Sequence record: OZ035772.1
DNA: 64,000 nt
Reading direction: 5' to 3' (one strand)
DNA from: Felixounavirus LF82P3
Positions 35,011 to 38,566 of this stretch are shown here, piece by piece. Each line of letters opens with the position of its first letter. Positions within the stretch are counted from its first letter, which is position 1. Position numbers and translations under genes: made by a program. The notes below the pieces were generated by a model that worked only from the letters and a program-made list of their open reading frames with translations, made no database searches and had not been told where the DNA came from.

Positions 35011-37377
35011 ATGCGCATGGTAAACGACCACGCAGAAGTGATTAAGAGTTCAACTTCTTTAGAGACGTCTCAAGCACAGATTACAATGACACCTGAAATG
35101 TTCAGCCTTTTGAGTTCTGGTGTATATACCTTTAAAGAAAGGGCAGTGATTCGTGAACTGTCATGTAACGCAGTAGATGCTCAGAAAGAAGCTGGAAAAG
35201 AGAATATCCCGTTCCATGTGCATTTACCTACTCGTTTTGAGCCTTACTTTGAAGTCCGTGATTTTGGAACTGGATTGACTCATGATAAAGTTATGAGTTT
35301 GTACCTAAACTACGGGGCTTCTACGAAGAATGACTCTAATGATTACATTGGTGCAATGGGTATCGGCTCAAAATCTCCATTTGCAATTGCTCAGCCATTC
35401 ACAGTATCTAGCTATGTTGACGGTGTTGTTAATAAGTACTCTGTTTATCTTGAGAATGGTATTCCTCAAGTAACTAAGCTGACAACTAACCCAACAAAAG
35501 AACCTAATGGTTTAGCTGTACGTGTGGCAGTTGCTGACCACCGTATCTCAAAGTTCTTTGAAGAAGCTGGTAATGTATACTCATACTTTGCTGTAAAACC
35601 AGAAAGTAATATTGTGTACGACGATGTATTAGCAGATATGAACGTCATTGCCCGTGAAGAGGGTGTTTATGATGCCATGATTCATAAGCAAAGTTGGCGT
35701 TCTAGTGGTAACAGGACAGAGTTTAATGTGGTGATGGGTAACATTGCCTACCCTGTTAACATGGAAGCATTACTTGGTGATGACTTCTTCAAAGTATTGC
35801 CAGAATTTTTCCGTAGGAGCGTAGACCTTGTAAACATCTACATGCCTATTGGTTCAGTTGCTATTGCAGCTTCTCGTGAAGCATTGCAGATGAATGACAC
35901 GACAAAAAATGTTATCATTGAGGCTACTAAAAAGATAACTGAAGCAATTACAAAGGATGTTATCAAGAAAGTTAACAGTCAACCTACACTCATGGATGCT
36001 GCACAGGCTTATGCTGAGTTACGTTTGAACTCACGAGAGATGTTTAATGCTGTGTGTCCAAAGTTAGAGTGGGGAGGTGTTAAGCTTGACTCTCTGGAAG
36101 AAGAATTGTTAAACATTCGTCGTGGAATTATCTACGCAGAAGACGGCTCAGTCGTCTATGAACGTGACGGCAAAGGCAATATTAAGGTTGACAGCAAAGG
36201 AAACAATATCCCTAAAGTTGACTACCTATACAATCCAGTTGCTTATGTCAAGTTCAACTCTTTAGAGAGTAAGATTCGTGCAACAGCACTTTCCTACACT
36301 CAAGAGGCAAGTATGTTCAATATCTTTGGTGCAATGCGTAAAAGTCAAATTGAACAGTTTTTGTTTGTTATTAATGACCGTCGCAATAAAAACGGTACTG
36401 AGAAGACTGTAGGCCGCAATCAGATTCTGCGTGGTGCATGTCGAGACTACGCCAGTGAGTCCAGTCTGTTTCACAGATATAATGGTATTGTGTTTGTATT
36501 CTCGACTGAAAAAGAGTTAGATGATTTAATCAATCTACACAAACTTGATAAAAGCTTGTTAAAGATTGTGAAAATGTCTGATAAGGAACACCATTACCAG
36601 CGTAAAGAAGCTGTAAGAGGTGTTGTAAAACTCTGGAAAGCTGTTCCAGCAGAAGGTGTAGCCTCCTACAAAGAGGTGTCAGAGGACTTAGACACAATTG
36701 AAGAACCTCAGCTTTACATTAAGGCAATTGGTGACACAGTTGATGGTGAATGTTTTTGCTCATCCCCAGAAGATGTAGCTAAGTCAGTTGCTAATGTTAT
36801 TGGAAAGACAGTCTATGTTTTCCGAAAAGCAAATTGGAAAAAGATACCAGAAGACTGGATTGAAGTAGATGAGAAGCTCTTGAACGACAGCTTAACTGAT
36901 GTTCATTGGATTAATCACAACAGGTATATGACACGCATCTACATGAATGGTGTTCTTGACCTTACAAGTAGCTGGATTATTGCCAGAAACTTTACATTCA
37001 ATAATAGGAAGATTTCTCGTGGTTATTGCTATTCACGGGATACAAACAAAACTATCTTCCTAGAAGGTAATGAAGAGGCTGTAGAGGCAATGTTCGGTAA
37101 AATCCAATACGTTGCTGCACCATTTGCATACACTTATACTATTAGTGTATTGAAAACTTTGAAAGACTGTCTTGACAATGATACAAAGCTTTACAATAAA
37201 ATTAAGAAAGCTGGTGACCGTATGGTTATTAAGGTGACAAACTATCTTTCAAAAAGAAAACAAGAAAACTTCTTGCTTTCACACTTAGATTGGAATAAAG
37301 TATCACCTATCGAAGTGAGTAAGTTTTTAGGCTTTGATGTGAAGTGTGTTCCAGAAGGGACTACAATTTACGATTAA
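35011..37377 (+). CDS. rIIA: rIIA-like protein with GHKL-type ATPase motifs
   Basis: N-box-like RELSCNAVDA and G1-box-like VRDFGTGLT; 788 aa; followed by rIIB-like gene. Confidence 0.6.
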   Translation: MRMVNDHAEVIKSSTSLETSQAQITMTPEMFSLLSSGVYTFKERAVIRELSCNAVDAQKEAGKENIPFHVHLPTRFEPYFEVRDFGTGLTHDKVMSLYLNYGASTKNDSNDYIGAMGIGSKSPFAIAQPFTVSSYVDGVVNKYSVYLENGIPQVTKLTTNPTKEPNGLAVRVAVADHRISKFFEEAGNVYSYFAVKPESNIVYDDVLADMNVIAREEGVYDAMIHKQSWRSSGNRTEFNVVMGNIAYPVNMEALLGDDFFKVLPEFFRRSVDLVNIYMPIGSVAIAASREALQMNDTTKNVIIEATKKITEAITKDVIKKVNSQPTLMDAAQAYAELRLNSREMFNAVCPKLEWGGVKLDSLEEELLNIRRGIIYAEDGSVVYERDGKGNIKVDSKGNNIPKVDYLYNPVAYVKFNSLESKIRATALSYTQEASMFNIFGAMRKSQIEQFLFVINDRRNKNGTEKTVGRNQILRGACRDYASESSLFHRYNGIVFVFSTEKELDDLINLHKLDKSLLKIVKMSDKEHHYQRKEAVRGVVKLWKAVPAEGVASYKEVSEDLDTIEEPQLYIKAIGDTVDGECFCSSPEDVAKSVANVIGKTVYVFRKANWKKIPEDWIEVDEKLLNDSLTDVHWINHNRYMTRIYMNGVLDLTSSWIIARNFTFNNRKISRGYCYSRDTNKTIFLEGNEEAVEAMFGKIQYVAAPFAYTYTISVLKTLKDCLDNDTKLYNKIKKAGDRMVIKVTNYLSKRKQENFLLSHLDWNKVSPIEVSKFLGFDVKCVPEGTTIYD

Positions 37378-37456
37378 AGTGTTTGACAAGGGGCTTCAAA
37401 GCCCCTTAGAATAGCCTCACAAATTGATTTATTAACTAACAAGAGAGAGTAATAAG

Positions 37457-38566
37457 ATGACTACTAAAACTAAAGCACAGATTGACGCAGAAATTTACAA
37501 ACTGGTTAAAGAGGGCAAGCTGACTAAAACCGCTATTGCACAGAAATTTAACACCTCAACCCGTTCAGTCGGTCGTGCTGTAGAGCGTCATGAAGCAACC
37601 TTAAAAGGGAATAAGAAGGTGACTTCTACACCAGCTACGAAGACTCTGAAGCAAGTTGCTAAGACCTTTAAAAAGAAAGCTGACAAACCAGTTGAAAAGG
37701 TTGTTAAAGATGCTGTACAGAAAGCTCCGGTAAATAAACTGCATGAAGCTATGCAGAAAGATGACAAGATTGAGTACATGATTACTGGTGACTCTGTAAT
37801 TATGACTTACGGCTCAGAATCTGAAATTGTTGAATCTACTCATCCGAACTATCAAGAGATTGTAGTTCATGTTGTGAAAGGTGAGTTTAAGAAAGCCTTT
37901 GAACTGATGAACATTCGTAAGTCTATCGAAAACTTCACTCAGGGTGCTATCACAATCAAGGGTGACAAACTATTCTACGGTGCTGTTGAGATGCGTTCTA
38001 CTCTGGTTGACCGTATTCTTCACATGATGAAGACTGGTGATAAAGGTTTTGAACGACTTGTAATGTTCTTCGAAAAACTGATGGAAAACCCATCTAAAGA
38101 TTCCGTAGAACAACTTTGGGGCTTCGTATCTCACCTTGATGTTGAAATTGATGAAGAAGGCTACATCATTGGTTGGAAGAAAGTATCTACTCGTGAAGGC
38201 AAGCTGGTTGACTCCCACACCTACAGAGTACCTAATGATTTGGGTAACATTGTAGAAATGCCACGTTGGATGGTTGATAATAACCGTAACGTGACTTGCT
38301 CTCAAGGTCTTCATGTTGGTGCTTGGGATTATGTTCGTTGTTTCTCAGGTGATACAATTCTGAAGGTTCGTGTCCATCCACGAGATGTTGTATCTGTTCC
38401 AACTGATTACAACGATATGAAGATGCGTTCATCCCGTTATGAAGTTGCAGCAATCGTTGATAATCAGCGTAAAGTGCTGAAAGCATGGGATGGTAAGACT
38501 GAAGCTTTGCATGTCATCGTTGGTACTGCTGGTGAGCTTATCTCTCAACGTAAACGTGAAATCTAA
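37457..38566 (+). CDS. rIIB: rIIB-like protein
   Basis: RSTLVDRIL, MENPSKDSV, CSQGLHVG, RVHPRDVVSVPTDYNDMKMR resemble T4 rIIB as recalled. Confidence 0.6.
   Translation: MTTKTKAQIDAEIYKLVKEGKLTKTAIAQKFNTSTRSVGRAVERHEATLKGNKKVTSTPATKTLKQVAKTFKKKADKPVEKVVKDAVQKAPVNKLHEAMQKDDKIEYMITGDSVIMTYGSESEIVESTHPNYQEIVVHVVKGEFKKAFELMNIRKSIENFTQGAITIKGDKLFYGAVEMRSTLVDRILHMMKTGDKGFERLVMFFEKLMENPSKDSVEQLWGFVSHLDVEIDEEGYIIGWKKVSTREGKLVDSHTYRVPNDLGNIVEMPRWMVDNNRNVTCSQGLHVGAWDYVRCFSGDTILKVRVHPRDVVSVPTDYNDMKMRSSRYEVAAIVDNQRKVLKAWDGKTEALHVIVGTAGELISQRKREI

Follow-up and report, generated by a model that had tools for sequence, protein, structure and literature searches.

The stretch of DNA analysed here (the window, 64,000 nt) belongs to a Felixounavirus (Ounavirinae) and is 96–98% identical at the DNA level to many deposited phages whose records annotate rIIA and rIIB. 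On its + strand lie two adjacent genes, rIIA (positions 35011–37377, 788 aa) and, directly downstream, rIIB (37457–38566, 369 aa). An earlier note on this DNA had read these two ORFs as an rIIA/rIIB-like pair; both were recovered with the lengths and positions that it gave, and the motifs that it quoted are present. The start of rIIA at 35011 is supported by an upstream Shine-Dalgarno region (GAGAGGAAAG), by the first 25 residues, which are conserved in phage SUSP1, and by the near-invariance of M1 among homologs, whereas the Felix O1 record places the start 25 codons later, at Met26.

On direct reading of the sequence, the two genes are separated by a spacer of 79 bp (37378–37456, + strand), which contains a putative sigma-70-like promoter (TTGACA-18-TAGAAT, 37383–37412, + strand) matching 11 of the 12 consensus positions. 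The segment between the two hexamers of this site forms a perfect hairpin, with GGGGCTT and AGCCCC stems and a CAA loop. A second hairpin, resembling an intrinsic terminator, lies on the + strand at 38580–38603, 14 nt past the rIIB stop codon; its 10-bp stem contains 5 GC pairs and is followed by a T-run (TTTTTTATTT). It is likely to mark the end of the rII transcription unit.

The gene order around the pair, namely NAMPT, small ORFs, rIIA, rIIB, an ORF of phrog_600, polynucleotide kinase and the spanins (40417–40927, about 2 kb downstream of the pair), is common to the window, Felix O1 and Bas63 (accession MZ501086). Elsewhere in the window we found a replication module of the T7 type, comprising homologues of gp5, gp4 and gp6. 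These are a family A polymerase (10625–13354, − strand; Pfam DNA_pol_A; 22% identity to T7 gp5, E 6e-13), a fused primase-helicase (15807–17798, + strand; Pfam Toprim_2 and DnaB_C; 27.7% identity to T7 gp4A over 592 aa, E 3e-44) and a 5'-3' exonuclease (19193–20233, + strand), whose match to T7 gp6 is weak (21% over 221 aa, E 2e-5). The coexistence of rII genes with such a module, as reported in the earlier note, is thus borne out; by sequence comparison, the relationship of these proteins to those of T7 is one of distant homology and not of close kinship.

Domain architecture and affinities of the two proteins

Both are full-length rII proteins, with similarity well above the chance level. 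The profile search against the rIIA and rIIB families that the earlier note had proposed returned decisive similarity, and the assignment cannot be refuted for want of it. The rIIA protein matched the PHROG RIIA profile phrog_612 with E 8.2e-189 (aa 1–770 on profile positions 1–716 of 725), and rIIB matched the RIIB profile phrog_609 with E 1.1e-88. In BLASTP comparisons with T4, rIIB was 38% identical to its counterpart over aa 11–339 (E 2e-60). The similarity of rIIA to T4 rIIA covers only the N-terminal ~40% of the protein (32% identity, aa 24–317, E 2e-36), and no BLASTP similarity to T4 rIIA was found in the C-terminal ~450 aa, suggesting that target specificity may differ between lineages. 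T4 and the window share a homologous N-terminal GHKL region in rIIA, essentially all of rIIB, and the adjacency and common orientation of the two genes. They differ in that the window rIIB is 57 aa longer, mainly on account of a Lys-rich linker, and in that the genomic context in the window is not T4-like.

The rIIA protein comprises an N-terminal Hsp90-like GHKL ATPase region (~aa 25–330) and a lineage-specific C-terminal region (~aa 330–788). The former displays an N-box (RELSCNAVDA, aa 48–57), a G1 motif (DFGTG, aa 84–88, within the VRDFGTGLT that starts at aa 82), a G2 motif (GAMGIGSKS, aa 114–122) and a conserved ASRE motif (aa 287–290). Across 58 homologs, R48, E49, N53, D56, D84, G86, G114, G117, G119, K121, R289 and E290 are invariant. 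A profile built from rIIA recovered the N-terminal domains of TRAP1, HtpG and GRP94 from the PDB (E 7e-12) with the N-box, G1 and G2 aligned, which points to the Bergerat ATP-binding fold. The top Foldseek matches of the AF2 model (pLDDT 86.3) all belong to the Hsp90 family (E ~1e-15), with 560–750 aligned columns that include the middle-domain region. The GHKL-ATPase-like motifs noted earlier are thus well founded, and with its complete and invariant N-box, G1 and G2 the protein is predicted, from sequence and model together, to be a soluble Hsp90-like GHKL ATPase. We rejected its inclusion in the Hsp90 family proper: it scored 41.5 bits against the NCBIfam HSP90 family (E 6e-11), where the cutoff is 455 bits, and the structural matches have identities of 10–14%, TM-scores of 0.3–0.49 and rmsd values of 15–20 Å. 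The resemblance hence concerns only the fold and the ATP site, and the low identities and TM-scores indicate a domain arrangement different from that of Hsp90.

At its N terminus rIIB has a three-helix HTH (aa 6–49) followed by a disordered Lys-rich linker (53–97), after which come an alpha/beta middle domain (~100–225) and a beta-rich C-terminal domain (~237–366). The last of these bears the most conserved motif of the family, VHPRDVVSVPTDYNDMKMR; the rIIB-like motif RVHPRDVVSVPTDYNDMKMR lies at aa 305, and four residues (C281, G284, H286 and P308) do not vary among 51 homologs. The AF2 model (pLDDT 82.8) renders the HTH with confidence. Against the PDB, Foldseek returned only HTH-sized matches to this model, with the DNA-binding domains of DeoR, NarL, KorA and MuB-N at probabilities of 0.9–1.0; there was no global match and none at E<=0.001, and the middle and C-terminal domains had no fold relative there. 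Weak Pfam HTH matches (E 0.0013) agree with the model, and a profile search of the PDB with rIIB gave only marginal HTH matches (E >= 0.07). Against BFVD the same model gave 32 matches at E<=0.001, many of them nameless; those with names are mostly RIIB, rIIB-like or lysis-protector proteins.

A single-sequence Pfam scan yielded nothing above threshold for either protein; HATPase_c appeared in rIIA below threshold (E 0.24), and PF26926 was not reported on rIIB, the model being probably missing from the copy of Pfam-A used. In precomputed assignments, PF26926.1 is present on the 98%-identical rIIB cluster representative (P0052) and on all the listed homologs but one. Given the decisive PHROG, T4 BLASTP and profile results, the Pfam null is no argument against the rII assignment. 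A single-sequence search of the PDB gave nothing meaningful, and its hits to E2F4 and WDR33 (E 0.5–0.8) were rejected as chance. Neither protein has a hydrophobic segment of transmembrane grade (maximum KD-19 of 1.29 in rIIA and 0.69 in rIIB), and the classical label of membrane integrity protector is accordingly not explained by their sequences.

Probable counter-defence function and competing readings

Felix O1 encodes orthologs of both proteins (Felix01p001 and Felix01p002; 97.0% and 94.0% identity for rIIA and rIIB), as do Bas63 (gp84 and gp85; 98.1% and 82.6%) and the more divergent SUSP1 (62.5% and 79.5%), and the window rIIB is 100% identical to that of phage ULIM3. T4 is the prototype of rIIA/rIIB action against lambda RexAB, and a conditional requirement for rII against abortive infection is found both in T4 and in SUSP1, where rII knockdown results in sensitivity to RexAB (PMC11879866). 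In Bas63, deletion of either g84 or g85 reduced plating 1e4–1e5-fold on qatABCD, a defect that was complemented (bioRxiv 10.1101/2024.10.10.617714). The sensitivity profile of Bas63 in the BASEL study is that of the wild-type phage and does not bear on rII. The plating of phages with and without the genes on rexAB lysogens, which the earlier note had put forward as a check, has thus in effect been done in these relatives. By analogy, they suggest that the rII genes of the window are dispensable on permissive hosts and required on hosts with RexAB or QatABCD.

We consider it very probable that the pair forms a conserved rIIAB operon for counter-defence in a Felix O1-like myovirus, and that its products likely act together. 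Coupling of the two proteins is suggested by the adjacency and shared orientation of the genes with the terminator-like hairpin past rIIB, by their near-identical distributions (2,925 of 50,697 phage records with rIIA homologs and 2,910 with rIIB homologs, the two together in ~2,900, or ~5.7%), and by a natural RIIA-RIIB fusion of 1,049 aa in RB43 (UniProt Q56C47; phrog_609), in which an rIIA-like N-terminal domain and the rIIB C-terminal region form one polypeptide. The phrog_609 profile matches both window proteins, which, in contrast to the fusion, are encoded by separate genes, with the spacer and its promoter-like site between them. Most likely, the two proteins would act together early in infection, with ATP binding and hydrolysis by rIIA driving a conformational cycle in an rIIA–rIIB assembly. 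Such an assembly may keep abortive-infection systems such as lambda RexAB and QatABCD from triggering or from depolarising the membrane, and the phage would then grow on hosts carrying them, the pair being dispensable elsewhere. In the literature searched, no paper gave a structure of rIIA or rIIB or a biochemical mechanism for either, and none showed an ATPase activity of any rIIA or a direct rIIA–rIIB complex.

A more specific reading, which we regard as speculative and rather unlikely, is that rIIA acts as an ATP-driven clamp of the Hsp90 kind and works with the HTH-bearing rIIB on a nucleoprotein or protein client in the cytoplasm, not at the membrane. It would also have the rIIB tail diversify in Felixounaviruses because host sensors of the CARD/NLR-gasdermin kind recognise rIIB. 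Two alleles of this tail, 34% identical over aa 341–369, do occur in Felixounaviruses beside a near-invariant rIIA; that of the window is of the Felix O1 type and not of the Bas63 type.

Less probable still is the possibility that rIIB is mainly an HTH transcription factor, a negative regulator with rIIA as its regulatory ATPase, and that protection from defence systems follows indirectly from altered expression. The HTH, on which the weak Pfam matches, the model and the Foldseek results agree, is consistent with this proposal, and rIIB was classed as a specific transcription factor by Iyer et al. 2021 (PMC7824862). However, no part of the protein is less widely conserved than the HTH; the rIIB proteins of N4-like phages and many other distant versions align only to aa 196–340, which places the family-defining function in the C-terminal domain. 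Furthermore, rIIB has no known DNA target, and T6 RIIB activates a gasdermin system alone, without other phage genes, which shows that host factors are directly affected by it or recognise it.

The labels 'lysis inhibitor' in PHROG and GenBank, together with the nearby spanin genes, might instead suggest a lysis-inhibition (LIN) module that delays holin-mediated lysis upon superinfection, but the label is historical and goes back to the plaques of T4 r mutants, which are of the rapid-lysis type. In T4, true LIN requires that rI bind holin T. Moreover, the knockdown and deletion studies found that the defect was large but confined to hosts with RexAB or QatABCD, with none where a defence system was lacking, and the genome paper on Felix O1 describes no holin-lysin cassette (PMC3185647), making this account highly improbable beside that of a counter-defence operon.

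Inheritance of the locus

The earlier note had further concluded that the rII pair, in the company of T7-type replication genes, reveals a strongly mosaic genome. Unlike the identity of the pair, the motifs and the coexistence, this part of its interpretation is not supported. Genes for rIIA and rIIB are spread over many phage lineages, including T-even phages, Vequintavirinae, Ackermannviridae, N4-like podoviruses and Streptomyces and Caulobacter phages, and are for this reason no hallmark of T4. That a genome with T7-like replication genes recently acquired the locus from a T4-like phage by horizontal transfer, as might be supposed from T4's being the closest characterised rII proteins and the T7 group's being the most similar to the replication proteins, is exceedingly improbable and was rejected, since the identity to T4 is merely 32–38%, the locus is fully syntenic within Ounavirinae and occupies the same position in Felix O1, Bas63 and SUSP1, the identities of rIIA and rIIB to SUSP1 fall within the 45–93% of the neighbouring genes, GC and GC3 are indistinguishable from those of the flanks, and rIIAB occurs in so many unrelated lineages. 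No member of Ounavirinae with an otherwise intact site that lacks the rII genes was seen, nor any phylogeny nesting Ounavirinae rII on short branches within a T-even clade.

Significance for the rII family

The presence of rIIA and rIIB beside T7-type replication genes in Felix O1-like phages has been known since 2010, when the Felix O1 genome paper described rIIA as gene 1 along with a T7-like polymerase and primase-helicase (PMC3185647), and the pair carries this annotation in hundreds of GenBank records of such phages; the finding is therefore correct but ordinary. Its wider interest lies in how an Hsp90-like ATPase and an HTH protein overcome RexAB and QatABCD, and perhaps further systems of abortive infection. 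This question of mechanism is family-wide, and the window is no more tractable for it than the existing model phages; the clamp reading, if true, would likewise concern the whole rII family and not the window in particular. For the Felixounaviruses themselves, the NAMPT/PRPP-synthetase genes and rIIAB constitute two adjoining counter-defence modules, which are relevant to predicting the host range of therapeutic members of the group.

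Identity and relatives of the rII pair

Both ORFs of the rIIA/rIIB-like pair proposed in the earlier note lie exactly where it placed them: rIIA at 35011-37377 (+, 788 aa) and rIIB at 37457-38566 (+, 369 aa). The motifs that it quoted were located at rIIA aa 48 (RELSCNAVDA), rIIA aa 82 (VRDFGTGLT) and rIIB aa 305 (RVHPRDVVSVPTDYNDMKMR). Single-sequence Pfam searches returned no match above threshold for either protein (HATPase_c E 0.24; HTH matches weak). Against PHROGs, rIIA matched the RIIA family phrog_612 over its full length (E 8.2e-189), and rIIB matched the RIIB family phrog_609 (E 1.1e-88). 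The latter profile matches both proteins, at opposite ends, because of fusions of the type seen in RB43, which encodes a natural 1,049-aa 'RIIA-RIIB' protein. Direct BLASTP comparison with the T4 prototypes (from NC_000866) recovered rIIA at E 2e-36 (32% identity, aa 24-317) and rIIB at E 2e-60 (38% identity, aa 11-339); the C-terminal ~450 aa of rIIA showed no similarity to T4 rIIA by BLASTP. With the PHROG and T4 matches, profile similarity to both families is thus clear, and on sequence grounds the identification of the two ORFs as rIIA and rIIB stands. As a side observation, the PhageMaP preprint gives the Bas63 proteins g84/g85 '>80% homology' to T4 RIIA/B, whereas the window proteins, 98% and 83% identical to them, measure only 32% and 38%.

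The rIIA start at 35011 is preceded by a Shine-Dalgarno region, GAGAGGAAAG; M1 is almost invariant across homologs, and residues 1-25 are kept in SUSP1 (genus Suspvirus). The Felix O1 reference record starts rIIA at the equivalent of Met26.

Megablast with the rII locus matched 277 phage records, with query coverage of 80% or more in 210; those most similar, at 96-98% identity, are the Felixounavirus genomes LF82P3, VpaE1_ev78, ULIM3, ekra, UAB_Phi87 and HY02. Protein identities to the window for rIIA and rIIB, respectively, are 97.0% and 94.0% in Felix O1, 98.1% and 82.6% in Bas63, and 62.5% and 79.5% in SUSP1. Most of these Felixounavirus records already name the genes rIIA/rIIB, and the resemblance of the polymerase and primase-helicase to those of T7-like podoviruses has been reported (PMC3185647); hence all elements of the finding were previously published for Felixounavirus.

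Anatomy of the two proteins

A profile built from the N-terminal 340 aa of 40 rIIA sequences matches TRAP1, HtpG, GRP94 and Hsp90 in their ATPase domains (best E 6.8e-12), aligning IRELscNAvDa with IRELISNASDA, VrDfGtGL with IQDTGIGM, and iGaLGLGSKS with IGQFGVGFYS. This motif-aligned match bears out the GHKL-ATPase-like motifs of the earlier note. The NCBIfam HSP90 model also matches rIIA (E 6e-11), though its score falls far short of the model's cutoff, and precomputed HATPase_c or HATPase_c_3 matches exist for many of its homologs. Across 58 diverse rIIA proteins, R48, E49, N53, D56, D84, G86, G114, G117, G119, K121, R289 and E290 are invariant, a pattern expected of an active GHKL ATPase. 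The top structure matches of the AlphaFold model for full-length rIIA (pLDDT 86.3) are solely Hsp90-family proteins (E about 1e-15), with 560-750 aligned columns yet TM-scores of only 0.3-0.49; rIIA shares the fold and ATP site with this family but is not a member of it.

The rIIB model (pLDDT 82.8) begins with a three-helix bundle (aa 6-49), from which a disordered, Lys-rich linker (aa 53-97) leads to a middle domain and then to a β-rich C-terminal domain. The bundle resembles the DNA-binding domains of DeoR, NarL/DosR, KorA and MuB-N (Foldseek, probability 0.9-1.0); no relative of the middle and C-terminal domains was found among solved structures. In a viral model library rIIB had 32 matches at E<=0.001, the named ones mostly RIIB or rIIB-like and many nameless. 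No transmembrane-grade hydrophobic stretch was found in either protein.

Within Felixounavirus, rIIB is far more variable than rIIA (82.6% versus 98.1% identity to Bas63), the variable part noted being rIIB aa 229-369. Its last ~30 residues exist as two alleles, 34% identical, one in the window and Felix O1, the other in Bas63, P0055 and P0057; allele exchange may account for this, or else selection acting on a protein sensed by host immune systems.

Genomic setting and the question of mosaicism

The earlier note was right about the type of the replication module, which includes a family A polymerase (10625-13354, -; Pfam DNA_pol_A E 7e-16; T7 gp5 22% identity, E 6e-13), a Toprim+DnaB_C primase-helicase (15807-17798, +; T7 gp4A 27.7% identity over 592 aa, E 3e-44), an exonuclease (19193-20233, +; phrog_107 E 3e-63; T7 gp6 identity only 21%, E 2e-5) and an ATP-dependent ligase (7907-9007, -). 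Judged by these identities, the likeness to the T7 proteins is distant.

Its deduction of a strongly mosaic genome was overstated: it presumes that rII is a T4 hallmark, yet rII is spread over many phage lineages. By tblastn of 50,697 phage records, rIIA occurs in 2,925 and rIIB in 2,910, with near-identical host and taxon distributions, and a 2026 review puts the frequency at a consistent ~5% (PMC13434031). The bearers include T-even phages, Vequintavirinae, Ackermannviridae and N4-like podoviruses, and phages of Streptomyces, Caulobacter, Vibrio and Pseudomonas. Synteny within Ounavirinae is complete, running through NrdAB, NrdDG, PRPP synthetase, NAMPT, small ORFs, rIIA, rIIB, the phrog_600 ORF, polynucleotide kinase and spanins. 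Identities to SUSP1 of both rII proteins fall within the 45-93% range of 21 neighbour genes, and GC (0.39 for rIIA, 0.41 for rIIB) and GC3 (0.35) are like those of the flanks. Recent import of the locus was rejected, there being no sign of it in synteny, divergence from SUSP1, GC or GC3; rII together with T7-type replication genes is a stable, ancestral arrangement of Ounavirinae.

Just upstream of rII, 31712-32608 (+) encodes a PRPP synthetase-like protein and 32654-34435 (+) a nicotinamide phosphoribosyltransferase (Pfam NAPRTase E 7e-35); they are 78.5% and 98.3% identical to Bas63 g79 and g80. As these orthologs reportedly counter Sir2-HerA (bioRxiv 10.1101/2024.10.10.617714), two counter-defence modules stand side by side in the window. 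Downstream is a 182-aa phrog_600 ORF of unknown function (38667-39215, +), with a signal-peptide-like N-terminus, MKKLILGLCLMFTAHLSYA; its Felix O1 ortholog is labelled only 'hypothetical 20.7 KD protein in vs-regB intergenic region'. This ORF also carries a lytic transglycosylase-like ALQESELG motif. The following gene (39193-39888, +; phrog_3970), a 'polynucleotide kinase' by relatives' annotation, had no Pfam match; because of its 231-aa length and HAD-type DxDxV motif (LADIDGVL), it may be the phosphatase half alone. A putative i-spanin with an overlapping, embedded o-spanin occupies 40417-40927 (+); the orthologs in SUSP1 and Bas63 bear spanin annotations, and the ORF at 40658-40927 contains a lipobox-like LLITMSGCS. 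A cluster of 26 tRNA genes (58364-63582, +) is typical of Felix O1-like phages. The window nrdD (26509-28653) is a single unbroken 714-aa ORF, whereas in Bas63 (locus L009 6631-9517) a homing-endonuclease insertion interrupts the gene, which is recorded there as a joined CDS, a case of intron/homing-endonuclease content varying within the genus.

Expression and function of the rII pair

rIIA and rIIB are neighbours with a shared distribution across phages, and RB43 has them fused. Their 79-bp spacer contains a sigma-70-like promoter match, TTGACA-18-TAGAAT (37383-37412), and a strong terminator-like hairpin lies 3' of rIIB. The 18-nt spacer of the promoter-like match is itself a perfect hairpin (stems GGGGCTT/AGCCCC, loop CAA). 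The site may mark an RNA 3' end or stabilise the transcript, instead of or besides serving as a promoter.

In Bas63, where bas63_0084 and bas63_0085 are rIIA and rIIB, deletion of g84 or g85 lowers plating on qatABCD hosts 1e4-1e5-fold, and complementation rescues it (bioRxiv 10.1101/2024.10.10.617714). A Lysobacter CARD/gasdermin system is triggered by T6 RIIB alone, and T6 escapers from it carry rIIB null mutations (bioRxiv 10.1101/2023.05.28.542683). 'Lysis inhibitor' is a label of historical origin that the knock-out data do not support. The rII identity and a conditional function are well supported. How rII works biochemically is a matter for the whole family; given the function in these relatives, the best explanation would be that rIIA and rIIB form an ATP-driven assembly, for which we infer both the ATP cycle and the complex, and that this assembly would stop abortive-infection systems from being set off or executed.
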